From assembly GCA_963703125.1 (NCBI GenBank), contig OY969790.1, positions 2,575,832 through 2,639,831 of the forward strand: a stretch of 64,000 nt of DNA, read 5' to 3'. This stretch comes from an uncultured Flavobacteriaceae bacterium. GTDB taxonomy: Bacteria > Bacteroidota > Bacteroidia > Flavobacteriales > Flavobacteriaceae. The notes under the pieces were generated by a model. The model was given only the letters and a program-made list of their open reading frames with translations, ran no database searches and was not told where the DNA came from. A program made the position numbers and the translations under genes. This document shows positions 40,700-64,000 of this stretch, piece after piece. How positions within the stretch are numbered: position 1 is the first letter of the stretch; every line of letters starts with the position of its first letter.

Positions 40700-40722
40700 T
40701 CTGTATATGGCTAATATAAAAC

Positions 40723-42168: not shown

Positions 42169-42186
42169 TGGTTCAAAAACTAATTC

Positions 42187-43482: not shown

Positions 43483-43487
43483 AGCGT

Positions 43488-43949: not shown

Positions 43950-43950
43950 T

Positions 43951-44931: not shown

Positions 44932-45239
44932 TACTTATTTATTTTGAATTTTGGAATGCTGCACCAAGAGTTTTTTAAATTTTTAGAGTCCAGTATTTTC
45001 ACCTGAAAACAGGTACAACTATGAAAGTTGTTCCTAAAGATACTAATTATGCGATAGCCTCAACAGTGCTATGTGTTATCTATAGATAAGGACATAAATT
45101 TTGTAGTGGCCAAAAGAACCGATTTTTTAAAATAAAATTCAAATACTGTTTTGAGCAGCTGCATTTTAACCGCTTTAAAAAGTTTTCTTCCAATTTAGTC
45201 CGGAGATCAACTAAAATCCAATTGAATTAAATCAAATTC

Positions 45240-47018: not shown

Positions 47019-47420
47019 ATGAATATACTATTAATAGAAGACGATCAAATAGAAGTAATGAAGTTGCAAAGAACAGTTTCAAAACTTGGCTTAAAGCATA
47101 CAATTGTTGAAGCTAAAAATGGTGAAGATGCCTTAGAAATTCTTCAATCTGGTCAAAAATTACCTGATATTATTCTTTTGGATTTAAATATGCCGAGAAT
47201 GAACGGAATAGAATTTTTGGATATTTTAAAAAATGACAATCAATTAAAATATTTGCCCACAATAATATTGACAACATCTGAAAATAGGGCAGACTTGCTA
47301 AAATGTTATGAGGCAGGAATTGCTGGATACGTTGTAAAGCCTTTAAAATACGAAGATTACGAATCTAAAATGAGGAAATTAATGGACTACTGGGAAGTAA
47401 ATCAACTGGTTAAAGGCTAA
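47019..47420 (+). CDS. Single-domain response regulator (CheY-like receiver)
   Basis: 133 aa with EDD at the N-terminus, the phospho-acceptor context IILLDLNMP, and VVKP. Confidence 0.9.
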   Translation: MNILLIEDDQIEVMKLQRTVSKLGLKHTIVEAKNGEDALEILQSGQKLPDIILLDLNMPRMNGIEFLDILKNDNQLKYLPTIILTTSENRADLLKCYEAGIAGYVVKPLKYEDYESKMRKLMDYWEVNQLVKG

Positions 47421-47496: not shown

Positions 47497-48039
47497 ATGA
47501 AAGGTATTGTATTTACTGAATTTTTAGAAATGGTTGAGGGAACTTTTGGTCTTGAAACTGTTGATACCATTATTGAAAACTCAAATTTACCCTCCGAAGG
47601 TATTTATACTTCTGTAGGAACGTATGATTTCAATGAAATGGTAGCCTTAATCACTGCGCTTCATAATAAGACAAAAGTACCGGTAGATGATCTTATTTAC
47701 ACGTTCGGTCATTTTCTTTTCACCAGTCTTGCTAAGGCACATCCAGAAGTGATATCCAATTACTTATCTCCAATGAATCTCTTGTATTCTATAGAAGATC
47801 ATATTCATGTACATGTTAAAAAGTTATATCCAGATGCAGAGCTTCCAAGTTTTACCATTCTAGATAAAACGGATACATCCATATCCATGATCTATAAATC
47901 ATCCAGAGGACTTTATCGGCTGGCGCATGGTCTTATGGAGAAATGTTTTGAACAGTTCAACAAAACGGCCAAAGTTAGTTATGAACTCATAAAGCAAGAC
48001 GGCACTGAAGTTAAATTTGATATTGTCCAAAATGGATAG
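47497..48039 (+). CDS. H-NOX (heme-NO/O2-binding, HNOB) domain protein
   Basis: 180 aa with MKGIVFTEF at the N-terminus. DHIHVHVKKLYPDAELPSF aligns to the sGC-type proximal-His region. The YxSxR motif is present as YKSSR. Confidence 0.85.
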   Translation: MKGIVFTEFLEMVEGTFGLETVDTIIENSNLPSEGIYTSVGTYDFNEMVALITALHNKTKVPVDDLIYTFGHFLFTSLAKAHPEVISNYLSPMNLLYSIEDHIHVHVKKLYPDAELPSFTILDKTDTSISMIYKSSRGLYRLAHGLMEKCFEQFNKTAKVSYELIKQDGTEVKFDIVQNG

Positions 48040-50411: not shown

Positions 50412-51539
50412 ATGAAAATAGAGCAATCAATAAAAATAGTAAACGGGCCATTTGTATATGAAAATGAAAGAATACAACTTAATAATCCTTTGGTTCTAGT
50501 TTTTGGCGATCGTTTCATGTTGGAACAGGAAGAACTGCTTGCTGAGGTGAAATCCATATATCCTACCGGGCATCTGGTTTTCGGTAGCACTTCTGGTGAA
50601 ATCATTGGAGCTACTGTTTTAGATAATTCGTTGACCATGACTGCGATAGAGTTTGAAAAATCTCAATTTTTGGTCAAGAAAAAGAATGTTTCTGATTTTC
50701 AAAATAACGATTTTGAATTGGGGAAATCACTTTTAAGTGAATTTCCTAAAGAAAATCTGAAGAATATATTTTTAGTGTCAGAGGGTAGTTTTGTGAACGG
50801 TAGTTCTTTAATTTCAGGATTTAAGAACGGAAATCAAGAGGTTAATATTTCTGGTGGACTTTGTGGTGATGGGAATCGGTTTCAAAAGACCCTTTGTTCT
50901 TATAATGAACGACCAAAGGAAGGTGAAGTGGTAGCCATTGGTTTTTATGGTGATACCTTAGAAATCAGTAGTGCAAGTTATGGTGGTTGGTCAACCTTTG
51001 GCCCTGAACGTAGCGTTACTAAATCAAAAGGAAATATATTATTTGAATTGGATGGTAAGCCTGCGTTAGATCTCTACAAGGAGTATTTGGGAGAAAAGTC
51101 GAAAGAATTGCCAAAATCAGCATTACTGTATCCACTTAATGTCTGTGTTGATGACCAACAACCCATTGTACGTACCATATTGAATATTAGTGAAACACAG
51201 AATACAATGGTACTTGCTGGGGATATACCAGAAGGTTCCACAGTGCAATTGATGATGTCTACTGTCGATGATATTGCTGAAGGTGCCTCTATAGCTGCTA
51301 AATTGGCCATGGAAAATCGGGTTCATAAACCCGAATTAGCTATCTTAATTAGTTGCGTAGGAAGAAAACTGGTTATGGGGCAACGTACCGAAGAGGAGAT
51401 TGAAGAAGTAGTTTCCATTATTGGAGAAGATACTGTTGTTACCGGTTTCTATTCTTATGGGGAAATGGCACCATTTTCTGGTCAAGAATCTTGTAGATTG
51501 CATAACCAGACCATGACCTTAACCTTAATTAGCGAATAA
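50412..51539 (+). CDS. FIST-domain sensory protein
   Basis: 375 aa. The C-terminal GFYSYGEMAPF..LHNQTMTLTLISE is characteristic of FIST_C. Confidence 0.8.
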   Translation: MKIEQSIKIVNGPFVYENERIQLNNPLVLVFGDRFMLEQEELLAEVKSIYPTGHLVFGSTSGEIIGATVLDNSLTMTAIEFEKSQFLVKKKNVSDFQNNDFELGKSLLSEFPKENLKNIFLVSEGSFVNGSSLISGFKNGNQEVNISGGLCGDGNRFQKTLCSYNERPKEGEVVAIGFYGDTLEISSASYGGWSTFGPERSVTKSKGNILFELDGKPALDLYKEYLGEKSKELPKSALLYPLNVCVDDQQPIVRTILNISETQNTMVLAGDIPEGSTVQLMMSTVDDIAEGASIAAKLAMENRVHKPELAILISCVGRKLVMGQRTEEEIEEVVSIIGEDTVVTGFYSYGEMAPFSGQESCRLHNQTMTLTLISE

Positions 51540-52597
51540 TGCATTCTTTACTGAGCAGACAATTAAGGAAAAAATTACCGGAGCGTTTTAGGGACGACCC
51601 CGGGCTTCAGGATTTTTTGAAATCCGTAGATCAGTCCTATGAGGATTTTGATGATAAGCTTACCATGCTGCAAAGAGCCACTACCATAAGTTCTAAAGAA
51701 CTGTCTGAAGCTAATAAAGAATTGTCCAATGAAGCCGAAAGGCAAAAATTGGTTTTGCAATCATTAAGCGAAGCAATGGTCAGTCTTAATTTAAACTTGG
51801 GTATTGATCAAGAAAAAGATATTGAAATACTACAAAATATTAAGGTGGAGAAATTGGCGGTCCACATTAAAAACTTGGCCATTAAAATTTCAAAGATCAA
51901 TCAAGAAAAGACTGATTTACTTAATGATTTAGAAGCAAGAAACGAATCTTTAAGTAATTATATACAGATTGTTTCGCATGATTTAAAGTCTCCCTTAAGA
52001 AATATCAACACATTAATGAGTTGGATTCTTGAAGAGGAAAAGGACGGTTTTTCGTTCGAGAGTAAAAAGAACTGTGTGCTGGTAACTCAAAATCTTTCTA
52101 AAATGGAGCAGCTCATTAGTGGTATATTAGATCACGCCACCATTGGGGCGGCGCCTGAACATAGAAGTGAGGTTTCCATTGATGAACTGATGATCGAAGT
52201 TAAAAATAATCTTGATGTTCCTGAGAATGTCACCTTAAAATGGACAGAGCATATGCCGACCATAACTATCGAGAAAATTTGGTTGGAGAAGGTATTTTAC
52301 CATCTTATAAACAATGCCTTAACTGCGGTGAAAAATAGGAGTGAGGGTAAAGTTTATGTAGGTTATGAAGAGGATAATAGCTATTGGAAATTTTCAGTTT
52401 CCGATAATGGTATCGGTATAGCAAATCGTTACCATAAAAGTATATTTGAAATTTTTAAAAAGTTAGAAAATGATACTGCCTCTGCAGGGGTAGGTCTTGC
52501 TATTTCGAAGAAAATAGTAAATCTATACCAAGGAGACATTAGTCTTTCATCAAAGGAAGGTGAGGGTAGTACGTTCTTTTTTTCTCTAAAAAAATAA
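51539..52597 (+). CDS. Cytoplasmic histidine kinase (coiled coil plus HisKA plus HATPase_c)
   Basis: 352 aa with H-box IVSHDLKSPLR and G-box GVGLAISKK. Its start overlaps the FIST stop (TAATG). Confidence 0.85.
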   Translation: MHSLLSRQLRKKLPERFRDDPGLQDFLKSVDQSYEDFDDKLTMLQRATTISSKELSEANKELSNEAERQKLVLQSLSEAMVSLNLNLGIDQEKDIEILQNIKVEKLAVHIKNLAIKISKINQEKTDLLNDLEARNESLSNYIQIVSHDLKSPLRNINTLMSWILEEEKDGFSFESKKNCVLVTQNLSKMEQLISGILDHATIGAAPEHRSEVSIDELMIEVKNNLDVPENVTLKWTEHMPTITIEKIWLEKVFYHLINNALTAVKNRSEGKVYVGYEEDNSYWKFSVSDNGIGIANRYHKSIFEIFKKLENDTASAGVGLAISKKIVNLYQGDISLSSKEGEGSTFFFSLKK

Positions 52598-52599
52598 TT

Positions 52600-52920
52600 A
52601 TGAAGCACGAACCAAACATTTCATATATTATTGAACTTTCAGGAGATGACTCAGACTTTCAAGAAAAGTTCATCAACATTTTAAAGGAAGAATTCCCAGA
52701 AGAAAAAGCCGTTTACCTAAACGCTGTTCAGCAAAAGGATTTTACAAACGCGGTGGAAATAGTACATAAACTCAAACATAAATTCAATATTTTAAGCATG
52801 TATGATGCATACGCTTTAGCGGTCACATATGAATTGGAATTGAAAAATAAAGATCTTGGTAACGATAAGGAATTCATTATAGCTTTAAATGTGGTGGATT
52901 CATACTTAAAAACTATTTAG
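52600..52920 (+). CDS. HPt-like histidine phosphotransfer protein (tentative)
   Basis: 106 aa, predicted helical. VHKLKHKFNIL resembles the HPt HxLKG motif. Confidence 0.45.
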   Translation: MKHEPNISYIIELSGDDSDFQEKFINILKEEFPEEKAVYLNAVQQKDFTNAVEIVHKLKHKFNILSMYDAYALAVTYELELKNKDLGNDKEFIIALNVVDSYLKTI

Positions 52921-52922
52921 CA

Positions 52923-53630
52923 ATGAATTGTATAATTATAGACGATGAGACCGCAGCTAGAGCGGTTGTTAGTCATCTTTGTTCCCAAATCACGGAATTA
53001 GATGTAATCGAAGAATTTGACAATGCGATAGACGCCATTAAATTTCTGAACCAACAAGTGATTGATGTGGTGTTCCTGGACATTCATATGCCAGGATTTT
53101 CGGGAATCGATTTTGTTCAAACACTTAAAAACCCGCCCCATATTGTATTGACTACCTCGGATACGGAATTTGCTATCGAGGCATACGAATATGAATCCAT
53201 AGTTGATTATTTGGTAAAGCCAATTACTCTAAACCGTTTTGAGAAGGCAATTAAAAAAATAAGGAACGTAAACGAGAACAGTAAACACAAAGAAAATGTG
53301 GTTCATAAAACACCTTTGAACCAAGAGCTTTATATCAATATAGATCGTAGACTTATCAAATTGAAGTTTGACGAAATTCAATTGATTATGGCACAAGGTG
53401 ACTATATCGATATAACTACCGAGAGTAAAAAATATAGGGTTCATACAACATTGAAGAAAATCAAGGAAAAATTACCGGAAACTATTTTTCTTCAAATTCA
53501 TCGTTCATACATCATTAACTTCACAAAAATCATTGATATCGAGGATAATAGTGTTTTAATTGAAAAAAACGTTGTTCCCATAAGTCGTTCTAGTAGACCA
53601 GAATTAATGAGAAGACTTAATTTGGTATAA
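52923..53630 (+). CDS. LytTR-family response regulator (receiver plus LytTR DNA-binding domain)
   Basis: 235 aa with VVFLDIHMP and YLVKP in the receiver. The C-terminal LytTR pattern is IHRSYIIN..PISRS. Confidence 0.9.
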   Translation: MNCIIIDDETAARAVVSHLCSQITELDVIEEFDNAIDAIKFLNQQVIDVVFLDIHMPGFSGIDFVQTLKNPPHIVLTTSDTEFAIEAYEYESIVDYLVKPITLNRFEKAIKKIRNVNENSKHKENVVHKTPLNQELYINIDRRLIKLKFDEIQLIMAQGDYIDITTESKKYRVHTTLKKIKEKLPETIFLQIHRSYIINFTKIIDIEDNSVLIEKNVVPISRSSRPELMRRLNLV

Positions 53631-53826: not shown

Positions 53827-55899
53827 TTATTGATTTTCAATTCTTGTTTTCATCTTAGTATAGTAAATAGGCTTGTCTAGAAATAGCCATTTCAGTTTGC
53901 ACCCAACTTCAGTAAATTCAAAACCTGCTGCGGTAGCCGATGCAATGTTGCTATACTTTCCATATAGATTGGCACTAAATCTTTTTGAGAATTGATGCTG
54001 TACTGCTGCTTCAGCCCTGAAAATTGTTGTGTTGGGATCTTCTTCGACCTTTTGGAATCCGGTTGCCGCGCTGATCATATAAGTTGTCTTTTCAGAAAAA
54101 TTTCCACGTAGATCAGTAAAGATTTCAACGGCCTGATACTGTTCAGGACTAAAGTAAATAGTGGGTACTTGATTTTTAAACGTAATATATTGATAGTTTA
54201 CGCCCATTTTTAAAGCAGGTTTTTGCAATAGGGTGTAGTATAAAGAAGTAAATAGTAGGTTTCGGGTATTCGAATCACTTTGTTGGGTATGCATTAACTG
54301 TGTGTACCAACCTAAATTAATGTTAGTGCCCAAATTGTAATTTAATCCGTAATGGTGTTGTATAATTTCACGTTCAATAAGTTCCGCATTAAAGTTTTGA
54401 ACTTCTCGCTGATAGCCTAAAGTTAGATTCTGCAATTTTAAGGGCTCTAGCATTAATCTGGCCTCTAAGACCGGTTGGGTATAGGCATCGTCCATAAATC
54501 TGGAATTGTTAAAACCAATAACTGTTTTTAAAATGGTTTTGGGAAAAAGTTTGTACCGTAGACCGGCCAAGACTACATGAGAATTGGCTTTGTTATTGGT
54601 AACCGAATTCTCGGTTGTCCTATAAAAATAGGATACAGTTGTTCTGAATTTAGTGGAAAAGGGTACTTCAACTGTAGTATTGGTGTAAAATGCCACATTA
54701 TTGCCGTTATCAAAAGTATAGGCCGCATGTTCCTCAATACTAGGGGTATGCATTAGATTTAGTTTTTCTATAAAACCTAAAGCGTCCTTTTGATTTTCGT
54801 AAAAGGCGAGGGTTTTGTAAGCCATCTCGTAGGCTGGCAGTATTCTATCAGCTGCAAAAAGAGCGTTTGCCTTACCCAAATTCCCGTCAAAAGACGTACT
54901 ATCCTTTTTTAAAATAGCATCATAACTTTCTAAACTGCTTTTTACATCTCCGGTATATAGTCCCAAGGTTGCTTTTAATCCAAAAACCCAACTGGGAATT
55001 GGTTTATGATTTTCTAAACTATCAATTTGTTGCTTAGCTTGTTTAAATTTTCTGTTCCATATCATCGCTTGTATGTACCTGTCATAAGTACGTTCCTTGA
55101 GTTCCGTATCTGTTATTTTTGAAACTTTGATTTTAGCACGTTCAGCTATTTTAAGCGCTTCTTTGTCCTGTTCTCCAATATGTTCTGCTAATGCTATGCC
55201 GTTTAAGGCTGTAATTGAATCCTTTGGTGAGGTAGCATATCTTTGATACATCACCTTTGCACTATCAACCTGTTTTGTTATTAGATATAGGTTGGCTAGA
55301 TTGAGCAATGCATCTTTGTCTTCAGGAAAATCGATAAAGATTTTATTCAATAGTTCTTCTCCTTGGGTATAGTTCTGTTTATTTACAAACGTATTTGCGT
55401 AGCCCAAATTCATATATTTTCTAGAGGTAAGGGCACTAGTATTTCCAGGTTTGAGCAACAAAGCATTTTCGACCATTTCAAGCGCTGCTCTATACTCCTT
55501 TAAATTACTAAGTGTATTCGCATAGCCAAGAACGGCACCAAATTGATTTGGATTTTCCTTTACCAGTTCTGCATAAAGTGGTCTGGCCTTTTCATATTCC
55601 TCTGCCCACAAAAAAGACTCATTATAATTTATTAGTATTTCGAAGTCGTTGGGGTATTCTTTTAGCAACTGAGCAAATAAGTCAGTTGCCTTTTTTGGTT
55701 CTCCACTTAATCCTACTGCGCGCGCATAGCATAATTGGGCTGTTTTATTGTTAGGGTCGGATTTTAGATATGCTTCAAAAAATTCTTCGGCTTCTGGAAA
55801 ATTTCCCTTCTCCAATAAACCAAAGCCTTTGGTCATATCGGTTTGGGCCCAAATGATAGTAGTTGAAAATAGCAGGATTTGTAAGAGAAGTGTACGCAT
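53827..55899 (-). CDS. Outer-membrane TPR-repeat plus C-terminal beta-barrel protein (PgaA/BcsC/PelB-like export scaffold, tentative)
   Basis: 690 aa with a signal peptide. The N-terminal roughly 380 aa are TPR-like helical repeats. The C-terminal roughly 300 aa show an alternating beta-strand pattern ending in an aromatic-rich terminus. Confidence 0.55.
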   Translation of the reverse strand: MRTLLLQILLFSTTIIWAQTDMTKGFGLLEKGNFPEAEEFFEAYLKSDPNNKTAQLCYARAVGLSGEPKKATDLFAQLLKEYPNDFEILINYNESFLWAEEYEKARPLYAELVKENPNQFGAVLGYANTLSNLKEYRAALEMVENALLLKPGNTSALTSRKYMNLGYANTFVNKQNYTQGEELLNKIFIDFPEDKDALLNLANLYLITKQVDSAKVMYQRYATSPKDSITALNGIALAEHIGEQDKEALKIAERAKIKVSKITDTELKERTYDRYIQAMIWNRKFKQAKQQIDSLENHKPIPSWVFGLKATLGLYTGDVKSSLESYDAILKKDSTSFDGNLGKANALFAADRILPAYEMAYKTLAFYENQKDALGFIEKLNLMHTPSIEEHAAYTFDNGNNVAFYTNTTVEVPFSTKFRTTVSYFYRTTENSVTNNKANSHVVLAGLRYKLFPKTILKTVIGFNNSRFMDDAYTQPVLEARLMLEPLKLQNLTLGYQREVQNFNAELIEREIIQHHYGLNYNLGTNINLGWYTQLMHTQQSDSNTRNLLFTSLYYTLLQKPALKMGVNYQYITFKNQVPTIYFSPEQYQAVEIFTDLRGNFSEKTTYMISAATGFQKVEEDPNTTIFRAEAAVQHQFSKRFSANLYGKYSNIASATAAGFEFTEVGCKLKWLFLDKPIYYTKMKTRIENQ

Positions 55900-56015
55900 T
55901 ATTTCAGGTAAGATTAATACTACAAAACTTAACGTTCGTATTTGTTTTTTATTTCTAATTTCTTGAAGTATAAAGGTAGATAGTCTTCTTTCTAGCCGGA
56001 AGTAGGTTAATTGTT

Positions 56016-56048
56016 ATTCAACTATGCATAATTGCCATCGAACTATTT
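56016..56048 (+). promoter_or_regulatory. Phased repeats ATTCAACTATGC / ATCGAACTATTT (21-nt period) related to the 46929 repeats
   Basis: The first repeat matches ATTCGACTATAC at 10/12 positions. The AACTAT cores at 56020 and 56041 are 21 nt apart. The pair lies 79-111 nt upstream of the ATG at 56127. Confidence 0.35.
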
Positions 56049-56126
56049 TGTGTTGTTATGGTTGGCTAAGTGAGAGATATTTGCTTCATCAATAAAAGAA
56101 AACTTAACCTATTTAAAACATTTATT

Positions 56127-56429
56127 ATGGCATTACAAATTTCAGAAGCAAGAGGAGTATTTTCAGTATTTGGAGAATTGAACAGTTATACTGTAGCAAT
56201 TCTTACAAGACACATGAGTAATTATATTAAAAAGGACCAACGTGTCATTTTAAATTTAGAAAGGGTAAAAAAAATAGATGTTTGCGCGGCCTATACCATT
56301 AAGAAATTATTTATGGATGCAGTAGGTAAGAGCAGTATTTTTTCAATAGTGGCCATGGAAAATAAACAAGTGATGGATGTTTTTAATGAAACACAAATTA
56401 CATATATCGTAAGTAATGATCGGTACTAG
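56127..56429 (+). CDS. STAS-domain protein (anti-sigma-factor-antagonist-like)
   Basis: The likely start is MALQISEARGVFSVFGEL, and the layout LNLERVKKIDVCAAYTIKKL is STAS-like. No partner kinase or phosphatase is present in the window. Confidence 0.5.
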   Translation: MALQISEARGVFSVFGELNSYTVAILTRHMSNYIKKDQRVILNLERVKKIDVCAAYTIKKLFMDAVGKSSIFSIVAMENKQVMDVFNETQITYIVSNDRY

Positions 56430-56748
56430 ATATGTTTAGATCATAGTTTTCCCCCAGCACGTTGTTTTGGGTTGTCTACTTTATTGATTAGGTAGCTATT
56501 CATACAAAGTGCTTTTTTTATGGGATAGCAGATACTACAGTGGTATCTACTTTCCATTTTAATAGTAAAGTAGCACTTCCAGATTTATCGATAGTATTAT
56601 TTAAGATTTTTTAGGTAGGTAAAAGGCTTATCGTCAAAGGAATACCATTCGTCTACAGTAAATATCTATCCATCCTAAACTTCTCATTTTAAAGTATAGA
56701 TCATCGCAAATTTGCTTCAGAAATAAACTTAACCTAAAGTAAAAAAAG

Positions 56749-57987
56749 ATGAAACTAGCAATTGTTACAGCATTCCCACCGAGTAAAGTTACCTTGACCG
56801 AATACGGATATTATTTGGTAAAACATTTTCGATTACAGAAAGAAGTGACCGAAATTATTTTGATTACCGATAAAACACCAGAAGAAAAAGATCTTAATTT
56901 TAATGAGGAAGGGTGTAAGATTACCGTGAAAGAATGCTGGAATTTTAATGACTATTCAAATATTTTTAAAATCAGCAAGGTTTTAACGGACTCAAAACCA
57001 GATGCCGTATTGTTCAATCTTCAATTTTTAAAATTCGGAGATAAAAAAATACCTGCAGCGTTAGGTTTGCTACTGCCTTTTGTTTGCAAATTCAAGGGAA
57101 TTCCAACGATCTCTTTACTGCACAATATTTTAGAGCAAGTAGATTTGGATAATGCTGGTTTTACCTCGAACAAGGTATTACAGAAAGTATATAATTTTAT
57201 CGGTACCACGTTAACAAAATTTGTATTGGCATCAGATGTATTGGCGGTGACCATGAGCCAATATAAAAATATACTTGACAAAAAATACAAAGCAAAGAAT
57301 GTTGCCATAATTCCTCATGGCGCTTTTGACACGCCACCGGAGCCCGATTATACATTAAAACAAGGACCCAAACAAATCATGGCATTTGGCAAGTTTGGAA
57401 CTTATAAAAGAGTAGAAGTTTTAATCGAAGCTGTAGAATTGATTAGAAAAAAAACGAATGAAAATCTTGAAATTGTTATTGCGGGTACAGATAGCCCTAA
57501 TACACCGGGTTATTTACAGAACATAAAAGAAAAGTATGCACACGTAGAACAGTTACGTTTTACGGGGTATGTGGCAGAAGAAGATGTACCCGTTATTTTT
57601 AATGAAAGTGCAATGGTCATTTTCCCCTATACTTCCACAACAGGCAGTTCTGGAGTTTTACACCAAGCGGGTAGTTACGGTAAAGCAGTGGTATTGCCAG
57701 ATTTAGGAGATTTGAGTGTCTTGTTAAAAGAAGAAGGCTATAGAGGTGAATTTTTTGAACCTGAAAGACCGGAATCTTTGGCAAAAGCTATCGAAAAGAT
57801 ATTACAGAATGACTCATATAGGGTCAACCTGGGTAAGGTTAATTATAGTGCGGCTTGTTCGCTACCCATGTCAAAAATTACCCAAATGTATATCGATTAT
57901 TTTGAAGTTATTAAAATGGTCAAGTCCAAAGGATTTAGTTTGGATGTGAATAAAATTGATAAGAAACTACTAAGTCAAAGAGTTTAG
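56749..57987 (+). CDS. Glycosyltransferase family 4 (copy 1 of a paralog pair)
   Basis: 412 aa with FPYTSTTGSSGVLHQAGSYGKAVVLPD. By eye it is about 70 percent identical to the 60671-61900 product. Confidence 0.8.
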   Translation: MKLAIVTAFPPSKVTLTEYGYYLVKHFRLQKEVTEIILITDKTPEEKDLNFNEEGCKITVKECWNFNDYSNIFKISKVLTDSKPDAVLFNLQFLKFGDKKIPAALGLLLPFVCKFKGIPTISLLHNILEQVDLDNAGFTSNKVLQKVYNFIGTTLTKFVLASDVLAVTMSQYKNILDKKYKAKNVAIIPHGAFDTPPEPDYTLKQGPKQIMAFGKFGTYKRVEVLIEAVELIRKKTNENLEIVIAGTDSPNTPGYLQNIKEKYAHVEQLRFTGYVAEEDVPVIFNESAMVIFPYTSTTGSSGVLHQAGSYGKAVVLPDLGDLSVLLKEEGYRGEFFEPERPESLAKAIEKILQNDSYRVNLGKVNYSAACSLPMSKITQMYIDYFEVIKMVKSKGFSLDVNKIDKKLLSQRV

Positions 57988-58004
57988 GTTAGGTGAAGTG
58001 GAAA

Positions 58005-58037
58005 GGGAAGCGACCTGGTTAGTCGCTCCCTTTTTTT
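58005..58037 (+). terminator. Intrinsic terminator
   Basis: GGGAAGCGAC pairs with GTCGCTCCC (one bulge), followed by T7 at 58031-58037. Confidence 0.7.
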
Positions 58038-58190
58038 ACATCTGAACTATTAGCAATAATGATTTTGAATCATTGAATTCAAACCCGATTTTAAAATCGG
58101 AAATCTTTTTCACAATTAAACACCTTAATTATAATATATATAAAATGCTTACGTTTTACGTAAGTTATATCCTACTATAATTTTTTTACT

Positions 58191-59330
58191 ATGAAAATAC
58201 TAACTATAGACGATCAGCAATTAATTCTCTTATCCGTAGAGAAACGTTTAATAGAACTAGGTTACACCGTCAAGACCGCGAATAGTGGTCAAAAAGGGAT
58301 AGAATTGTTCAAGTCATTTGAACCTGACCTTGTTCTTGTAGATATCAATATGCCAGATATGTCTGGTTTGGATGTGGTAAAGCATATTAAAAAAGAGAGT
58401 CAGAGAAATACTCCTGTTCTCATAATGTCCGGTAATACAGAGGAAAATATTATCATGAACGGTTTTACGCTGGGTATCGATGATTACATGAAAAAACCGG
58501 TGAGTTTAGATGAAATGGCCGCTCGTATCAAAAGGCTTATCGGTGCTCCTGAAGTTTCGAACAGCTCTAAGGGTTCATTAGATGCCAGAATGTTGCAGAA
58601 GAATTGTGTAGGTGTAGTTATACCTTGCTATAATGAAGAAGAACGGTTATTGGGAAAAGAATTTAAGGATTTCGCCCACAAAAACCTAGGCTACCATTTA
58701 TGTTTTGTAAACGATGGTAGTACCGATAGAACTCTTGAAATTTTGAGGGAATTAGAAAAAGGAAGCGAGAGTAATATTAGCATTTATAATTGCGAAAAAA
58801 ATGGCGGGAAGGCAGAAGCTGTTCGACAAGGTATGTTGCATTTAGCGCAGGATCCACAACTTGACTACATTGGTTTCTTGGATGCCGATTTGTCGACCGA
58901 TTTTAGGGATTTTGATGATTTAGTGGAAACCTTGGATACCTCCAATTTTAAGATTGTTAGTGGTTCTAGAATGAGCCGCATGGGTGCTGATATTACCAAG
59001 GAATCTGCACGTAAATTGATTAGTATGTCCATCAATCTTATTATCAGGACCATCTTAAAAATGCCTTTTAACGATACGCAATGTGGTGCCAAAGTGATGG
59101 ATAAATCATTGATTCCGCTACTTTTTAATAAACCGTTTATCACCAAATGGTTGTTCGATGTTGAAATGTTCATGAGAATGCGCAAATATTATGGTAAAAC
59201 GAAAGCCAAAGAATTGATTTGCGAACAGCCACTTAAAAGATGGATACATGCAGATGGTTCCAAGTTGTCCATGAAAGACTCCGTGAAAATTGTTGGCCAA
59301 TTGGCCAAGATAGCAATTTCATATCGCTAG
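58191..59330 (+). CDS. Response-regulator receiver fused to a GT2 glycosyltransferase (polyprenyl-phosphate hexosyltransferase-like)
   Basis: 379 aa. The receiver shows IDDQ, LVLVDINMPDMSG and YMKKP. The GT2 part shows VVIPCYNEE, FVNDGSTD, FLDADL and NDTQCGAK. Confidence 0.85.
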   Translation: MKILTIDDQQLILLSVEKRLIELGYTVKTANSGQKGIELFKSFEPDLVLVDINMPDMSGLDVVKHIKKESQRNTPVLIMSGNTEENIIMNGFTLGIDDYMKKPVSLDEMAARIKRLIGAPEVSNSSKGSLDARMLQKNCVGVVIPCYNEEERLLGKEFKDFAHKNLGYHLCFVNDGSTDRTLEILRELEKGSESNISIYNCEKNGGKAEAVRQGMLHLAQDPQLDYIGFLDADLSTDFRDFDDLVETLDTSNFKIVSGSRMSRMGADITKESARKLISMSINLIIRTILKMPFNDTQCGAKVMDKSLIPLLFNKPFITKWLFDVEMFMRMRKYYGKTKAKELICEQPLKRWIHADGSKLSMKDSVKIVGQLAKIAISYR

Positions 59331-59364: not shown

Positions 59365-60645
59365 ATGACTGCAATACAATTAGCCGTTAAAAGAATTTCG
59401 CCTCAACAATTATTCATGGGGAGTGCCTTTTTGGTAAATGGCGGCAATTATCTTTACAATTTGTTGTTGGGTAGAATGTTAGGCCCTGAAGCCTTTGCAG
59501 ATGCTGCCCTTCTGGTGACTTTATTGCTCGTATTATCCTTTATTGGGATGACCTTTCAATTGGCGACCACAAAATTTGCCGTTCTTTTTGACGAAGAACG
59601 ATGGACCAATTTTAAGAATACGATGTATCGTTATGCGTTAGTTTTTGGATTGGTTACCGGTACTTTAATCTTGTTTGGCGCTAATTACTTACAGGTCCTT
59701 TTTCGTACGGAGAATCACTGGATGTTCGTGGTATTTGCCATTTTCATGCCACTTTACTTTGTAATGAGTGTAAACCGAGGCAGGTTTCAAGGAAGGCAGG
59801 AGTTCGGAAAATTGGCCACTACCTACCAAACCGAAATGTGGAGCAGATTGTTGCTCACCTTTATATTCCTTTGGATATTACCTTTTCAATCTGCCATTTT
59901 AATCGCATTGGGCATTGGCGTTTCCTTTGTCTTTGGACTCATTCCTTCTGATCTGAAAGAAGTGAATATTCTATCGAAGGCAAAAATGGATAAGGTCGAT
60001 TTTAAGCAAGTATGGATATTTATAGGACTTACCGCTGGTTATGAATTAACCCAAATTATCATAAACAATAGTGATATTCTTCTGGTAAAACATTATTTCA
60101 ATGATACCGATGCCGGACTTTATTCTTCCCTAGCACTTATTGGTAGGGTAGTCTACTTTGTGGCTTGGATGTTCGTTATGCTGTTAATGCCTACCGTAAT
60201 TCAAAAACGAAAGGATGGCGAGGCCACTGCGCCCGTACTTTTTAAATATGTTTTGTTTATTGGAATATTGTCTGCATGTATCGTAGGTGTTTGTTTTTTA
60301 ATGCCAGAATTCATCATTCAGGTAATGTTCGGTGATGCATATTTATCTGTTGCCGGTTTACTTTGGCAGTATGCTTTGGCAACTTCCTTGTTCGCCATAT
60401 CCAACATATTCGCCTATTATTTTTTATCACTTGACCATTACGCTCCGGTTATTCTATCAGGTATTTTGGGATTGTCCCAGGTGCTTTTAATTGTGTTCTT
60501 CCACGATAGTCTTGCCGCTGTAGTACAGGTTCAAATTTTGGCAATGATTCTATTATTGGTAGCCCAACTGGTTTTCTTTTTTATCAAGAATAAAAAAGTT
60601 AGAATAGAGAAAAATACCAACCAATTAACCACCAGTTTGGATTAA
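59365..60645 (+). CDS. MOP-superfamily oligosaccharide flippase-like membrane protein
   Basis: 426 aa with about 12 TM segments. The N-terminal NGGNYLYNLLLGRMLGP is typical of Wzx/polysaccharide biosynthesis proteins. Confidence 0.65.
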   Translation: MTAIQLAVKRISPQQLFMGSAFLVNGGNYLYNLLLGRMLGPEAFADAALLVTLLLVLSFIGMTFQLATTKFAVLFDEERWTNFKNTMYRYALVFGLVTGTLILFGANYLQVLFRTENHWMFVVFAIFMPLYFVMSVNRGRFQGRQEFGKLATTYQTEMWSRLLLTFIFLWILPFQSAILIALGIGVSFVFGLIPSDLKEVNILSKAKMDKVDFKQVWIFIGLTAGYELTQIIINNSDILLVKHYFNDTDAGLYSSLALIGRVVYFVAWMFVMLLMPTVIQKRKDGEATAPVLFKYVLFIGILSACIVGVCFLMPEFIIQVMFGDAYLSVAGLLWQYALATSLFAISNIFAYYFLSLDHYAPVILSGILGLSQVLLIVFFHDSLAAVVQVQILAMILLLVAQLVFFFIKNKKVRIEKNTNQLTTSLD

Positions 60646-60670: not shown

Positions 60671-61900
60671 ATGAGATTAGCAATTGTTACCGCCTACCCG
60701 CCAAGTAAAGTTACTTTAGTAGAGTACGGTTATTATTTAGTGAAACATTTTAGATTGCAGGAGCGCGTAACGGAATTGATCTTGATTACCGACCGTACCG
60801 AAGCTTCCAAAGATCTTGATTTTGAAGAAGAAGGGTGTAAGATTACCATAGAAGAATGTTGGAGTTTCAATAGTTACAACAATATATTGAGTATAAACAA
60901 AGCGCTATCTAAAACCAAACCGGATGCCGTGCTGTTCAATCTCCAATTTTTAAAATTTGGGGATAAAAAAGTACCCGCTGCTTTAGGGTTGTTGCTGCCT
61001 TATGTTTGCAAACTGAAAGGTATACCAACAATTTCCCTGCTACACAATATTCTAGAGAAAGTAGATTTGGACAATGCCGGTTTTACCAAAAATCCTATCC
61101 TACAAAAAATATACAATCTCATCGGAACCACGTTGACACGTTTTGTTTTGGCTTCTGATGTACTTGCGGTTACCATTAGTAAATATGTCACCATATTAGA
61201 AGATAAGTACAAAGTAAGAAACGTTGCCCTTGTTCCCCATGGTTCTTTTGAAACGCCACCAGAGCCTTCTTATATTTTACCTAAAGGACCAAAACAAGTG
61301 ATGGCCTTTGGAAAATTTGGAACGTATAAAAAAATAGAGATCCTTATTGAGGCGGTAGAATTGATTCGCGCTAGAAGTACTGAGGATATTGAAATTGTCA
61401 TTGCAGGAACAGATAGTCCCAATACACCTGGATATTTAGATTCCATAAAAGAAAAATACAGTCATGTTCAACAAATTAGGTTTACAGGTTATGTGGCCGA
61501 ACAAGATGTGCCCAAGCTTTTTGGTGAAAGTGCTGTTACTGTTTTTCCTTATACCTCTACAACAGGAAGTTCTGGGGTGCTACACCAAGCGGGTAGTTAT
61601 GGTAACGCTGTTGTATTACCAGATTTAGGTGATTTGAGCACACTGGTAAAGGAAGAAGGATATGTAGGCGAATTTTTTGATGCCTATGATGCATCCTCCT
61701 TGGCCAATGCCATAGAAAGAATATTGGTGAACGATGCGCATAGGATAGAAATAGGTAAAACTAATTTCAAAGCCGCCTGTTCATTGCCGATGTCTGAAAT
61801 AACGAAGATGTATCTTGATTACTTTGAGGCCATAAAGAAGTCAAAGGAACAAGGGTTCAATTTAGATGTTTCCAATAAAAGTTCAGAATTGGTACACTAA
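60671..61900 (+). CDS. Glycosyltransferase family 4 (copy 2 of the paralog pair)
   Basis: 409 aa, collinear with the 56749-57987 product. Confidence 0.8.
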   Translation: MRLAIVTAYPPSKVTLVEYGYYLVKHFRLQERVTELILITDRTEASKDLDFEEEGCKITIEECWSFNSYNNILSINKALSKTKPDAVLFNLQFLKFGDKKVPAALGLLLPYVCKLKGIPTISLLHNILEKVDLDNAGFTKNPILQKIYNLIGTTLTRFVLASDVLAVTISKYVTILEDKYKVRNVALVPHGSFETPPEPSYILPKGPKQVMAFGKFGTYKKIEILIEAVELIRARSTEDIEIVIAGTDSPNTPGYLDSIKEKYSHVQQIRFTGYVAEQDVPKLFGESAVTVFPYTSTTGSSGVLHQAGSYGNAVVLPDLGDLSTLVKEEGYVGEFFDAYDASSLANAIERILVNDAHRIEIGKTNFKAACSLPMSEITKMYLDYFEAIKKSKEQGFNLDVSNKSSELVH

Positions 61901-61923: not shown

Positions 61924-61954
61924 AAGGAGTCTGCTTAATAGGGACTTCTTTTTT
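61924..61954. terminator. Candidate bidirectional terminator between convergent genes
   Basis: AAGGAGTC (61924-61931) pairs with GACTTCTT (61943-61950) with one G-T pair. A T run follows. Confidence 0.4.
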
Positions 61955-63479
61955 ATTCTACGATAATTTCAAAAACTGGTTTCTTTTTGCCTTCTGTGTT
62001 AATCAAGCCGAAGTAACGCTGAGGATTTTTACGCCACGGTAATCTACCCACTACACTGTTGGGTACTTCATCAAAATCATAAAGTGTCCATAAAACAAAG
62101 GGAATACGTTCCGCATTTAATGTAGCCTGCATTTCAGTATAATATTGAGTCTGGTCTTCAAGTGAACCTAAATATCCATTCCACAGACCATCATAAGAGG
62201 AATAGCCATACTCCTGTAAGACGATGGGTTTGTTGACCACTTTATTTTTTAGTTTTTTATAGGCCGTTAAAAAATCAACTGGTTTCCGATAATAATGGAA
62301 AGAAACAAAATCAATTTCATCAGATAAATTCTCTGCAGCTTCAGGAGTAGACCAACCAATGGTTATGGGAGTTTCAGCATCCCATTTTTGTATTTCAGTA
62401 ATCATTTGAGACAGCCAAGCCAGAACATTTTCTTTTCCCCTTGTTTCAAAATCAAGGTCGGGCTCATTTTTAATATCCCAGGCGATTAGCGCTTGGTGGT
62501 CTTTAAATTCATCAACTATAAATTGGGCATGTCTATGGGTCAAGGTCCAATCTGGTATGGAATAATCACCGTAAAAATCGAACAAGGTTAGAATCACATC
62601 CAAATTAGCGGCCGAGGCAATGTCCATTACTTTCTGCAGTTTTTCTATTTTTTCATTTTCAATATCCGCTTGACCGAAATCTTCATACGGTACAAAAATC
62701 CGTACGGTATTAAGTCCCATTTCATTGATTATTTTAAAGTCGGATGAAATAATGCTGTCATTGAATTTTTTGCCATACATGTCCCAAGGGGAATCCTTAG
62801 GGTAATAGTTGATGCCCTTTATATTTGAAATTTTACGGTTTAGTTCTGAAATTAGGGTTTGATTGTTCGCAATTGGTATGGAATCATTTTCTATCTCCAC
62901 CATATGACGGATGCGCCAAAAACCATCCTCCAATAGCATCATTACTTTATAGCTACGTTCAAATGCCTTTCTTAGAATAGCTTTCTCTCCATAAAAAAAT
63001 TCTTCATATCCTTTTACGTTTTTATCGGTGAACGTGATGATTTTTCCATCCGCACTATAAAAATCCAATTGGGGGTGATGCTCTAGGGTAGTGGTTTTTA
63101 TGGAGTTGTTGTTTTCTTTATTAAAATCGAGAATCCGAAATAACTTCACCCTTGCACTATCGGTATAATAATCGGCTACACCATAATGATTATTGGTGCT
63201 TAGGGCATCGTTTTTAACGAACCAAGATTTTAAATAATCCCGCTCTATTTCTCCCAAGGTTTGTTTTTCCATAGGTCGTCCTTCATTTTCAAAAGGATAC
63301 CATGTGACTTCAGGTCTGTAGCTTGAAGAAAGTTTGGCGGGCAAATGAAGCATAGTACTGCGATCTGCACCGGTATTTAAATAGGAGAAGATTGAACTTA
63401 TGCCATAGATGACCAGAGCGTTGAGTACGACAAAGGTGATGATTAAGAAAATTCGATAAAGCGTTCTATTCGTTTTCAT
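61953..63479 (-). CDS. Membrane-anchored GH5-like (clan GH-A) glycoside hydrolase
   Basis: 508 aa with an N-terminal TM segment. WDIKNEPD (NEP acid/base) and VLQEYGYSS (nucleophile Glu) fit a cellulase-family (beta/alpha)8 fold. Confidence 0.6.
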   Translation of the reverse strand: MKTNRTLYRIFLIITFVVLNALVIYGISSIFSYLNTGADRSTMLHLPAKLSSSYRPEVTWYPFENEGRPMEKQTLGEIERDYLKSWFVKNDALSTNNHYGVADYYTDSARVKLFRILDFNKENNNSIKTTTLEHHPQLDFYSADGKIITFTDKNVKGYEEFFYGEKAILRKAFERSYKVMMLLEDGFWRIRHMVEIENDSIPIANNQTLISELNRKISNIKGINYYPKDSPWDMYGKKFNDSIISSDFKIINEMGLNTVRIFVPYEDFGQADIENEKIEKLQKVMDIASAANLDVILTLFDFYGDYSIPDWTLTHRHAQFIVDEFKDHQALIAWDIKNEPDLDFETRGKENVLAWLSQMITEIQKWDAETPITIGWSTPEAAENLSDEIDFVSFHYYRKPVDFLTAYKKLKNKVVNKPIVLQEYGYSSYDGLWNGYLGSLEDQTQYYTEMQATLNAERIPFVLWTLYDFDEVPNSVVGRLPWRKNPQRYFGLINTEGKKKPVFEIIVE

Positions 63480-64000
63480 GGTATGGTTATGATCATTTTT
63501 TTTGATAAACCTGCAACATTAATTTCTATGCTATAATTTCCAGGTTCAAAATACTCCCGAGTCAGCTTAAAATTACCTTGTCCTAATCTTGATGTTGTAC
63601 GGTCTTCAAGAATCAAAGAATTTTTTGCATCAAAAACCTTTATTTCGATAGGAATACCATCTGGTGCGGTTTGTTCCATAAAGCTTTTAATTTCTTGCAC
63701 TTCTACAGTACTGGACTCTTTATTGAAATTGGTATGATAATCTTTGATCGCAACCCTAAAGGACAAATGTATGATAGAGCTTTCTGCCGTACCGGTGACA
63801 TAGGCTTTTACCTCCCAATCATCTGGTTTGTACGGATGTAAAAATCTGGCTTTTGCGATTCCGTTCAATGTTGTTCCCACTGCTGTGAGTTGTATTCCTT
63901 CGGAATTTGTGGCGACAAACGAAACTAGTGTACCGTCACTGACAATGTTCCCGAATTCATCTTTTATGCTATCGGTGGAAAACAAAATAACCTGATTACC
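63476..64000 (-). CDS. Beta-rich (Ig-like fold?) protein; C-terminal part only, with the N-terminus outside the window
   Basis: The frame stays open to the window edge (..GNQVILFSTDS..). Its stop overlaps the downstream start (ATGA), so it is likely co-transcribed with the GH5-like gene. Confidence 0.35.
   Translation of the reverse strand, partial: GNQVILFSTDSIKDEFGNIVSDGTLVSFVATNSEGIQLTAVGTTLNGIAKARFLHPYKPDDWEVKAYVTGTAESSIIHLSFRVAIKDYHTNFNKESSTVEVQEIKSFMEQTAPDGIPIEIKVFDAKNSLILEDRTTSRLGQGNFKLTREYFEPGNYSIEINVAGLSKKMIITIP

Follow-up and report, generated by a model that had tools for sequence, protein, structure and literature searches.

Polysaccharide synthases gated by cyclic di-GMP (c-di-GMP) include BcsA-PilZ, PgaCD, PelD and Alg44, and response regulators with an enzymatic output include PleD, CheB, RpfG and PorX. 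In Shewanella and Vibrio, the H-NOX/HnoK systems convey nitric oxide (NO) through a kinase to several response regulators that control biofilm formation. On the enzyme side, the mycobacterial polyprenyl-phospho-GalNAc synthase PpgS (Rv3631) works together with a small membrane protein and a GT-C enzyme. Enzyme-output response regulators and polyprenyl-phosphate glycosyltransferases are both known, but a receiver domain on a polysaccharide lipid-sugar synthase has not been characterized before. Here, we describe a candidate for such a protein, encoded in a stretch of 64,000 nucleotides (nt) from an uncultured Flavobacteriaceae bacterium (GenBank assembly GCA_963703125.1, contig OY969790.1, positions 2,575,832 to 2,639,831 of the forward strand; hereafter the window, with a G+C content of 37%). 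The gene at positions 58191–59330 of the window encodes a 379-amino acid (aa) fusion of a response-regulator receiver domain (REC) to a family 2 glycosyltransferase (GT2), which we term REC-GT2.

Related domain combinations have been reported. MTH_548-type archaeal regulators join one or two receivers to a BcsA-like glycosyltransferase and have appeared in Galperin’s censuses since 2006 (PMC5847659). All4160/XssP are cyanobacterial fusions of a STAS domain to a sugar transferase (PMC13555669; bioRxiv 10.64898/2026.04.08.717354), and phosphorylation of such a fusion regulates polysaccharide synthesis in Anabaena (PMC13555669). In three-component glycosylation, a MATE-family protein can fill the role of the flippase, as in the Citrobacter pentofuranose system (PMC11127046). 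An earlier note on this DNA, made from the sequence alone, had known of no characterized example of the receiver-GT2 architecture, and our literature searches likewise found none; a broader claim that the architecture is without precedent would go too far, since receiver-GT2 proteins are listed in the censuses (PMC5847659) and the family is already in databases. The fusion is neither rare nor conceptually unprecedented; its architecture is well supported, and the system is conserved.

Based on sequence and structure prediction, our favored reading, held with moderate confidence, is that REC-GT2 is a response regulator whose output is a polyprenyl-phosphate glycosyltransferase without transmembrane (TM) helices, that phosphorylation of Asp51 gates the synthesis of a lipid-linked sugar, and that a neighboring phosphorelay feeds this switch. 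REC-GT2 would thereby probably let the cell switch sugar-polymer production directly at the enzyme. The parts of the gene are as follows:

58191–59330, + strand: REC-GT2 gene, 379 aa, an ATG-to-TAG open reading frame (ORF) with the stop codon included; Pfam Response_reg and Glycos_transf_2 above curated cut-offs
58191–58550, + strand: receiver (REC) domain, residues 1–120; recognized by Pfam, motifs, fold and conservation
58551–58601, + strand: inter-domain linker, residues 121–137; predicted local distance difference test score (pLDDT) below 50 at residues 123–131, poorly conserved in alignments A1 and A4
58602–59327, + strand: GT2 (GT-A) domain without a TM helix, residues 138–379; recognized by Pfam, PDB sequence search, AlphaFold2 (AF2)/Foldseek and hhalign

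A database search returned a protein 100% identical to REC-GT2 (P0001), and the closest named relatives come from Maribacter species. Pfam Response_reg (PF00072) covers residues 3–114 (E = 1.8e-26; 92.9 bits, cut-off 30.2) and Glycos_transf_2 (PF00535) covers residues 142–283 (E = 3.2e-23; 82.9 bits, cut-off 23.3), scores so far above the curated cut-offs that neither domain is a chance match. The receiver contains the complete set of residues for phosphorylation chemistry: the acidic pair D7/D8 in the motif IDDQQ (residues 6–10), the acceptor D51 (nt 58341–58343) in VDINMP (residues 50–55), S80 in IMSGN, and the aromatic Y99 and K102 (nt 58494–58496), followed by P103, in DYMKKP (residues 98–103). 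The counterparts of these residues in CheY are D12, D13, D57, T87, Y106 and K109. In an AF2 model built on 84 orthologs (pLDDT 83.5; predicted template modeling score 0.79), alternating β/α elements over residues 2–117 form a (βα)5 fold, and Foldseek matches this half to the receivers of YycF, MicA and Spo0F with template modeling scores (TM-scores) of 0.92–0.95. Comparison of structure and sequence places the receiver nearest to the OmpR/PhoB type (superposition TM-score at least 0.9), and PleD and PorX are also among the structure matches.

The GT2 half carries VVIPCYNEE (residues 142–150), NDGSTD (residues 174–179; D175 at nt 58713–58715), LDADL (residues 230–234) with the DAD triplet at residues 231–233 (nt 58881–58889), SGSRMSR (residues 257–263) and NDTQCGAK (residues 294–301; D295 at nt 59073–59075). 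A weakly amphipathic helix at residues 273–291 (nt 59007–59063) and a C-terminal helix at residues 361–378 complete the domain; the AF2 model places them at residues 272–289 and 361–378, bounded by low-confidence loops, and their hydropathy is moderate (maximum 1.1). The earlier note had read residues 1 to about 120 as a receiver from its DD pair, acceptor Asp and Lys, and the remainder as a GT2 from VVIPCYNEE, NDGSTD, DAD and NDTQCGAK; all of these motifs lie where it had quoted them, and the Pfam scores of 92.9 and 82.9 bits bear out both assignments. By its own criterion, absence of a conserved acceptor Asp in orthologs would have refuted it, but D51 proved invariant across our 84 orthologs at 52–91% identity.

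This set of 84 orthologs spans several orders of Bacteroidota. Besides D51, its invariant receiver residues are Y99, K102 and P103, with D7, D8 and S80 kept in at least 90% of the sequences; in the GT2 half, D175, D231, A232, D233, R260, R263 and the segment D295–K301 are invariant. The best 120 database matches to REC-GT2 (76–100% identity), from genera including Maribacter, Zobellia, Aurantibacter, Kriegella and Cellulophaga, all combine a receiver with a GT2 in about 380 aa. The same is true of the best 120 matches to a 56%-identical ortholog from Lacihabitans, which include proteins from Emticicia, Arcticibacterium, Algoriphagus, Foetidibacter and a metagenome-assembled genome (MAG) of Melioribacteraceae. 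Scanning one genome per species with the patterns V[VI]IPCYNE and Y[HT][LV]CFVND (alignment A2), which biases the recovered loci toward catalytically intact members, we found full-length orthologs in more than 25 genera of Flavobacteriaceae, including Flavobacterium, Tenacibaculum and Polaribacter, and likewise in Spirosomataceae and Saprospiraceae. Overall, fused orthologs show 52–100% identity. Family entries are very numerous in databases and, where named, are mostly called “response regulator”. Judged by these comparisons, the REC-GT2 gene is genuine and under selection, with the same two domains kept across the best 120 matches, and the fusion is not rare but common in Bacteroidota. In the fish-pathogen strain Flavobacterium covae AL-02-36 (L040:9995-11205), the ortholog is split into two ORFs of 105 aa and 193 aa, which probably reflects a pseudogene or a sequencing frameshift.

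We next consider the enzyme family of the GT2 half. By sequence, the nearest solved structures are ArnC (E = 6.7e-9), GtrB/sll0501 (E = 6.9e-9) and an archaeal dolichyl-phosphate mannose synthase (DPMS; E = 8e-7) in a phmmer search against the PDB, with 21–25% shared identity to GtrB, ArnC and DPMS. When the AF2 model was compared with the PDB by Foldseek, ranks 1–12 were exclusively ArnC, GtrB or DPMS (E = 3e-12 to 8e-10); these alignments extend over 240–258 columns, covering the whole GT2 half including its C-terminal helices, with target-normalized TM-scores of 0.47–0.59. An hhalign comparison of the family profile with E. coli ArnC gave 97.9% probability and set D295-TQCG on the DYGC loop of ArnC; the acceptor-side motif of Alg5 is DTQCG. 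Weak NCBIfam matches are all to polyprenyl-phosphate enzymes, namely ArnC, PpgS (E = 9.7e-10), PgfS and AglJ, and some orthologs bear the UniRef name “dolichyl-phosphate beta-glucosyltransferase”. The GT-A domains of PgaC/IcaA and TagF-type proteins also match the N-terminal half of the GT2 domain, and the cellulose-synthase-like family PF13641, at 20.5 bits, stays below its cut-off of 27, with BcsA not among the structural neighbors. Sequence, profile and predicted fold thus agree in supporting the assignment of the GT2 half to the polyprenyl-phosphate glycosyltransferases of the GtrB/ArnC/DPMS/Alg5 type.

At the level of the family, phmmer, Foldseek and hhalign uphold the resemblance to polyprenyl-phosphate (dolichyl-phosphate-glucose-type) hexosyltransferases that the earlier note had proposed. 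Its description of the GT2 as soluble stands in part: REC-GT2 has no TM helix, with a top 19-residue Kyte-Doolittle score of 1.12, but the enzyme is probably a peripheral membrane protein rather than truly soluble.

REC-GT2 lies within a set of genes for envelope polysaccharide, preceded by predicted control elements of its own:

53827–55899, − strand: outer-membrane protein with TPR and β-barrel parts, candidate PgaA/BcsC-like export porin; TPR families and BCSC_C
56070–56429, + strand: STAS-domain protein; Pfam STAS 32.6 bits, gene callers’ start 56127, 100 aa
56749–57987, + strand: GT1a, paralog of GT1b (73% aa identity)
58002–58034, + strand: terminator-like hairpin and T-run after GT1a; inverted repeat I3, 13-nt arms, 85% complementary, then TTTTTTT
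58107–58164, + strand: putative promoter/operator region; consensus matches, sigma-70-like at 58107–58135 and palindrome at 58148–58164
59365–60645, + strand: MOP-family (Polysacc_synt_3) polytopic membrane protein; Pfam 41.1 bits against a cut-off of 23, about 10 hydrophobic segments
60671–61900, + strand: GT1b, GT4-type glycosyltransferase; Pfam Glycos_transf_1 and Glyco_trans_1_4
61953–63479, − strand: membrane-anchored glycoside hydrolase (GH), TIM barrel, GH2_C/GH5-like; Glyco_hydro_2_C 34 bits, hydrophobic anchor at residues 5–35
63476–64000, − strand: Ig-like (Big_1/invasin-like) protein, 3′ part, the gene leaving the window; Cellulophaga ortholog (unk410) with signal peptide and lipobox Cys

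The MOP gene starts 34 nt 3′ of REC-GT2, and GT1b starts 25 nt 3′ of the MOP gene; the MOP-family protein is a candidate flippase or exporter. The porin candidate reaches 24.1 bits with BCSC_C (cut-off 23.5) and matches the PgaA model over residues 201–595 (E = 7.6e-14), far below that model’s cut-off. Beyond the end of the window, the Ig-like gene is followed by a 134-aa ORF and then by a 1028-aa polytopic membrane protein, P0427. Upstream, the predicted terminator-like hairpin would set REC-GT2 apart from GT1a. A possible operator is the perfect 7-bp palindrome CTTACGT-N3-ACGTAAG at 58148–58164, 27 nt 5′ of the REC-GT2 ATG. A riboswitch or other RNA element 5′ of REC-GT2 was considered and rejected, with no Rfam match in the window at gathering thresholds and none at E ≤ 1 in 55800–58300.

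We compared these neighbors with 82 loci and counted gene partners in the 59 loci that bear a locus-type GT2. The canonical order runs STAS, MOP and GT1 in the forward direction, then GH, the Ig-lipoprotein and the 1029-aa protein in the reverse direction, with REC-GT2 forward again at the end. The 1029-aa protein (unk1029) accompanies the GT2 in 53 of the 59 loci, the lipoprotein (unk410) in 52, the GH in 51, GT1 in 50 and the MOP protein in 46; the GT2 gene is divergent from unk1029 and adjoins it in 44 of 59, at a median gap of 197 bp. In many loci, the STAS gene is the first of the MOP-GT1 operon, and orthologs of the porin border the locus in five (L001, L008, L012, L038 and L042). Other genera have a single GT1 copy, and in the window GT1a and GT1b flank REC-GT2 and the MOP gene; the Maribacter locus has thus been duplicated and rearranged, and its gene order is derived.

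The same locus also occurs with a receiver-less GT2 of 264–276 aa, in Aquimarina, Dokdonia, Gilvibacter, some Saprospiraceae and some Spirosomataceae. A split arrangement, in which a separate receiver gene serves the receiver-less GT2, was considered and rejected, as we found no receiver gene within 3 kb of it. The GT2 is therefore the ancestral core part and the receiver a regulatory add-on. We conclude from gene content that REC-GT2 belongs to the core of an envelope-polysaccharide locus conserved in Bacteroidota, outside which the fusion is seldom found; this locus, which also exists with a receiver-less GT2, is its most informative context. Within the conserved locus, we recognized no phosphoglycosyl transferase or other initiating enzyme, and among its proteins no PilZ, GGDEF or GAF receptor. 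Its sole GT2 lacks TM helices, unlike the membrane-embedded processive GT2 synthase of the Pga, Bcs, Pel and alginate systems. The combination of a GT4, a MOP-like protein, a TPR porin and a hydrolase had suggested a Pel-like locus, which we rejected because Pfam and NCBIfam scans gave no PelD, PelE, PelF or PelG matches. A 476-aa metagenomic protein, P0320, is a natural triple fusion of REC, GT2 and STAS (STAS 23.5 bits, over the cut-off). This fusion links the stand-alone STAS protein of the locus functionally to REC-GT2, and by analogy the STAS protein is probably part of the same control.

The candidate phosphodonors are encoded upstream in a seven-gene signaling operon:

47019–47420, + strand: single-domain receiver, 133 aa, first gene of the operon; Pfam Response_reg 83 bits
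47497–48039, + strand: H-NOX (heme-NO/O2-binding) sensor protein; Pfam HNOB, E = 4.8e-39
48017–50404, + strand: histidine kinase with three PAS domains, HisKA and HATPase; H-box HDLKSP, His587
50412–51539, + strand: FIST_N/FIST_C sensor protein; Pfam
51539–52597, + strand: second cytoplasmic histidine kinase; H-box SHDLKSP, His147, HATPase_c
52600–52920, + strand: histidine phosphotransfer (HPt)-like protein, 106 aa; Pfam Hpt E = 0.006, below cut-off, VH56KLKHK
52923–53630, + strand: REC-LytTR DNA-binding response regulator, last gene of the operon; Pfam

The VHKLKHK motif of the HPt-like protein is invariant in six orthologs, and one of its orthologs, in the Flavobacterium locus L085, has a weak precomputed Hpt match. 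As neither kinase is a hybrid, a four-step relay would be natural, from kinase to single receiver to HPt to terminal receiver. The earlier note had named the kinases or HPt encoded upstream as the natural phosphodonors; two kinase genes and an HPt gene are indeed present, and the same H-NOX/FIST kinase-HPt cluster adjoins the gene family at no fewer than six additional loci, spread over five other genera. It stands beside REC-GT2 in Flaviramulus and Algibacter. In Flavobacterium hydatis, the relay operon ends at the HPt gene, 210 bp from a convergent REC-GT2, and in Lacihabitans the H-NOX, the FIST protein and both kinases form one same-strand run with the porin gene; neither has a LytTR gene there, and we saw no further output-domain regulator next to either relay. 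In Aquimarina algicola, the cluster lies beside a receiver-less locus. These neighborhoods support the relay as the phosphodonor of REC-GT2 in the window genome. In a Saprospiraceae MAG (L039:6284-11140), a 1101-aa Reg_prop/Y_Y_Y-HisKA-HATPase kinase has the REC-GT2 ortholog 412 bp downstream; by gene arrangement this is a classical adjacent pair, with a sensor type unlike that of the window, which suggests that the sensor connected to the REC-GT2 switch differs between lineages. Directly upstream of the signaling operon, at 39089–46283, lies an unrelated hexuronate-utilization block with genes for an altronate/galactarate dehydratase, a mannitol-dehydrogenase-family oxidoreductase, the TRAP transporter DctPQM and a Gfo/Idh/MocA oxidoreductase.

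We propose the following mechanism. On the cytoplasmic side of the membrane, the GT2 domain would take a sugar from a nucleotide-sugar donor and attach it to undecaprenyl phosphate; the rest of the locus would extend and flip the resulting lipid-linked sugar and use it outside the cytoplasm. Since no other initiating transferase was recognized, this is plausibly the committed step. In one variant, the product would be a primer that the GT4 extends, as with AglJ in archaeal N-glycosylation; alternatively, it could be the donor for a periplasmic decoration step. Phosphorylation of Asp51 would switch the GT2 step by one of two routes. Dimerization of the receiver could build the active oligomer: OmpR/PhoB-type receivers dimerize once phosphorylated, ArnC is oligomeric, and GtrB is a tetramer according to a PDB title among our Foldseek matches, which together make phosphorylation-driven oligomer assembly one option. 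The other route would be a changed engagement of the weakly amphipathic interface helix with the membrane or with partner proteins. In the window genome, phosphoryl groups would pass from the H-NOX- and FIST-associated kinases through the 133-aa receiver and the HPt protein to REC-GT2. The relay would also feed the LytTR factor, so that a single signal would reach transcription as well as the enzyme itself.

A more far-reaching version, which we put forward tentatively and regard as rather improbable in its full detail, makes REC-GT2 the committed, phosphorylation-gated starter of an undescribed envelope-polysaccharide pathway that is widespread in Bacteroidota. Synthesis would start on a polyprenyl monophosphate, the GT4 would extend the product and the MOP protein would flip it; the 1028-aa protein, as the representative of a new family of large polytopic transferases, would polymerize or transfer it, the hydrolase would trim it and the PgaA-like porin would export it. 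Asp phosphorylation would here replace c-di-GMP gating, with the H-NOX/FIST relay as input and NO or O2 as the likely signals.

The 1028-aa protein that this version needs belongs to a family of 1028–1029 aa (P0427 and L001:6607-9696) that has about 11 TM segments besides a large periplasmic portion. Column identity averages 81% among 43 orthologs. A Y-D directly behind TM1 and a long periplasmic segment, …LGFGDQ.AWLS.QT…DGNYHSARRLPELTTR…, are invariant, and the C-terminal region is of the FxLYD/β-sandwich type. Pfam matches stay under threshold: of 17 orthologs, 4 match PTPS_related (best E = 6.7e-4) and 1 matches PMT_2, together with a sub-threshold FxLYD domain in the periplasmic part (Pfam/NCBIfam). 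The AF2 model has a pLDDT of 64.7 and is poor in the conserved loops; Foldseek on this low-confidence model returned mostly β-sandwich/NTF2-like periplasmic matches and marginal ones (E about 2e-3, TM-score 0.30) to chains that we take to be STT3A.

Members of the REC-GT2 family with degraded halves provide a further view of the fusion. About 20 representative clusters (50% clustering) carry it, and we aligned 17 of them (alignment A1, with entries P0123, P0125, P0128-P0130, P0134-P0138, P0141, P0145 and P0176). In 11 of the 17 clusters, at least two of the catalytic GT2 residues D175, D231, D233, R260, D295 and Q297 are lost, while D7, D8, D51, S80, Y99 or F99 and K102 are kept, giving these proteins the look of a pseudo-glycosyltransferase with a live receiver. 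One of them, P0123, is the last gene of an operon in Flavobacterium sp. (L085:2893-11170; GCA_052113625.1), in the order REC, H-NOX, HNOBA/PAS kinase, FIST, kinase, Hpt, REC-LytTR and, directly after it, the degenerate REC-GT2; we found no polysaccharide genes within 10 kb of it. Two others, one from Neptunitalea chrysea and one on a contig that carries the Pustulibacterium marinum protein (L083 and L084; gene at 10001-11140/11143), share a conserved context unrelated to that of REC-GT2, with a ketoacyl-ACP synthase on one side and DUF5606, def and ruvX on the other, a LytS-type kinase and LytTR regulator 5–8 kb upstream and no polysaccharide locus. The reverse case is P0126, a 377-aa protein from a metagenome contig, whose receiver has N51, T80, H99 and R102 and is probably not phosphorylatable, and whose GT2 catalytic residues are all intact. 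From these natural variants, each half of the fusion can become non-functional.

A number of observations weigh against the reading of REC-GT2 as a phosphorylation-gated lipid-sugar synthase, and we set them out here together with the rival explanations. The searchable literature yielded no experimental work on any receiver-glycosyltransferase fusion. REC-GT2 missed all NCBIfam equivalog cut-offs (ArnC, 43.5 of 529 bits; PpgS, 38.2 of 370; PgfS, 36.2 of 500; AglJ, 32.1 of 325) and is no ortholog of these or other named enzymes. GtrB, ArnC and DPMS have C-terminal TM helices; REC-GT2 lacks a counterpart to them and stops about 60–100 residues ahead of that region (target lengths 301–355); since these helices shape the lipid-phosphate site, the use of a lipid acceptor is extrapolated. 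Nor could the 1028-aa protein be shown to be a GT-C user of a lipid-linked sugar, and we do not claim it as one: a PDB profile search with the family returned nothing relevant, and hhalign against E. coli ArnT gave 0.3% probability. The GT2 half could instead be an ordinary GT-A enzyme that adds a sugar to an undecaprenyl-pyrophosphate-linked oligosaccharide, a polymer, or a soluble or protein acceptor, with the receiver still regulating it. The absence of TM helices and of any equivalog-level match agrees with this, as do the weak or negative GT-C comparisons for the 1028-aa protein and the additional likeness of the N-terminal half to PgaC/IcaA and TagF-type domains. Against it stand the top 12 Foldseek matches, which are polyprenyl-phosphate glycosyltransferases only and extend over the full domain with its C-terminal helices, the hhalign match of the D295-x-x-C/G acceptor-side motif to ArnC, and the lack of another initiating transferase in the conserved locus. 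Moreover, a TM anchor is, to our knowledge, not universal in this class: human DPM1 and mycobacterial PpgS have none and rely on membrane partners, and the weak NCBIfam match to PpgS fits such an enzyme. We therefore regard an ordinary GT-A as unlikely.

The receiver and its input raise questions of their own. That distant paralogs have lost GT2 catalysis and kept the receiver indicates that the fold can serve non-catalytically in this family. REC-GT2 might then be a signaling adaptor or phosphate sink whose GT2 fold binds a nucleotide sugar, the STAS protein or a transporter, a role consistent with the 11 of 17 degenerate clusters, with the paralog that ends an H-NOX/FIST relay operon away from polysaccharide genes, and with the protein-protein coupling suggested by the REC-GT2-STAS fusion. 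However, the catalytic residues are invariant in 84 sequences down to 52% identity, which is unexpected for a non-catalytic scaffold, and the occurrence of receiver-less orthologs in this locus shows a need for the enzyme itself; because all catalytic residues of the window protein are fixed, we consider an adaptor role very improbable. A structural or dimerization module that works independently of phosphorylation is less plausible still for the receiver, and we give it hardly any weight: P0126 combines a degraded receiver with an intact GT2, and pseudo-receivers of this kind occur in other families, but the canonical phosphorylation residues are complete in the window protein and fixed across orthologs, and kinase and HPt genes are recurrent neighbors. 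The interface helix that could mediate switching has a maximal 19-residue hydropathy of 1.05 ± 0.24 in fused proteins (n = 162) and 1.75 ± 0.47 in receiver-less ones (n = 15), with values up to 2.46 in Aquimarina and a C-terminal extension of about 25–30 aa in the receiver-less proteins, a contrast that is a lead only, since the receiver-less set is small and mostly Aquimarina and thus confounded by phylogeny. Finally, we detected no kinase within 10 kb in roughly 50 of the 59 related loci, a count from 10-kb flanks that makes the linkage of REC-GT2 to kinases a lower bound; with most genomes lacking a nearby kinase, the phosphodonor is uncertain and may vary by lineage. It is quite possible, if not our expectation, that the adjacent H-NOX/FIST relay serves LytTR only, and that REC-GT2 is an orphan fed by an unlinked kinase or acetyl-phosphate, the adjacency having arisen by a Maribacter-specific rearrangement. 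The derived gene order of the window (GT1 duplicated, REC-GT2 relocated) would allow this, as would the different kinase type paired with the Saprospiraceae ortholog and the occurrence of the relay alone (L074) and beside a receiver-less locus (L058). It accounts less well for the independent and differently arranged juxtapositions in Flaviramulus, Algibacter, F. hydatis, Lacihabitans and the Flavobacterium locus L085, and for the relays of F. hydatis and Lacihabitans, which have neither a LytTR gene nor another output regulator beside them.

If REC-GT2 is indeed a lipid-sugar synthase gated by Asp51 phosphorylation, cells would have a means to turn matrix or capsule production on or off independently of transcription. 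This would apply to Flavobacteriaceae and other Bacteroidota, among which are pathogens of fish (Flavobacterium, Tenacibaculum) and important degraders of marine polysaccharides. It would suggest how a phylum reported to be without c-di-GMP cyclases attains the post-translational control that c-di-GMP exerts in other organisms, and would give bacteroidotal H-NOX and FIST sensors a concrete, assayable target. The receiver-less orthologs, the paralogs that keep a live receiver beside a dead GT2, and the one reverse case are natural controls that make the hypothesis unusually easy to test.

Among known enzymes, GtrB, ArnC and DPMS/Alg5 share with REC-GT2 the GT-A domain, an N-terminal PxYNE, the NDGS and DxD motifs, the acceptor-side D-x-x-C/G Asp and the helices after the core; REC-GT2 differs in its N-terminal receiver and in lacking C-terminal TM helices. 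PpgS is, like REC-GT2, a short polyprenyl-phosphate GT2 without TM helices and with membrane partners encoded nearby, but it has no receiver, comes from another phylum and acts in another glycan pathway; the score of REC-GT2 with the PpgS model, 38 bits, is far under the equivalog cut-off of 370 bits. The three-component systems of extracytoplasmic glycosylation (such as GtrABC and the Citrobacter pentofuranose system) combine a lipid-linked sugar synthase, a flippase and a GT-C transferase; in the REC-GT2 locus, a candidate lipid-sugar synthase similarly adjoins a MOP/MATE-superfamily membrane protein and a large polytopic one that has a periplasmic domain. Unlike these systems, the REC-GT2 locus encodes a porin candidate, a hydrolase and a GT4 of its own and does not modify an O-antigen locus, and we know of no regulatory domain on the synthase of any described three-component system.

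Proteins that join a regulatory domain to a sugar transferase come closer in architecture. In MTH_548-type regulators, the receiver is also N-terminal to a glycosyltransferase of the GT2 superfamily, and these proteins are likewise uncharacterized; they differ from REC-GT2 in belonging to the PF13641 subfamily, being confined to Methanobacteriaceae, having predicted processive-synthase chemistry and standing in another genomic context. All4160/XssP resemble REC-GT2 in carrying a phosphorylatable domain on the initiating sugar transferase of an envelope polysaccharide pathway, but there the modification is Ser phosphorylation by partner-switching kinases, and the enzyme is a Bac_transf phosphoglycosyl transferase and not a GT2.

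On the signaling side, the H-NOX/HnoK systems are like the relay of the window in co-transcribing H-NOX with a histidine kinase, in having several receiver outputs and in their link to the matrix. Their outputs are c-di-GMP enzymes and a transcription factor, whereas those of the window would be a LytTR factor and a glycosyltransferase, and the window relay further includes a FIST protein, another kinase and HPt. With the c-di-GMP-gated synthases and the enzyme-output response regulators, finally, REC-GT2 would share the logic of a signal that acts on the enzyme and not on transcription, and its locus includes a candidate PgaA/BcsC-like TPR porin. Unlike the c-di-GMP-gated synthases, REC-GT2 would take its input by direct Asp phosphorylation, with no second messenger or receptor domain. 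If Bacteroidota are indeed without c-di-GMP cyclases, direct Asp phosphorylation of a pathway enzyme could, as an attractive hypothesis, stand in for the c-di-GMP gating of exopolysaccharide machines.

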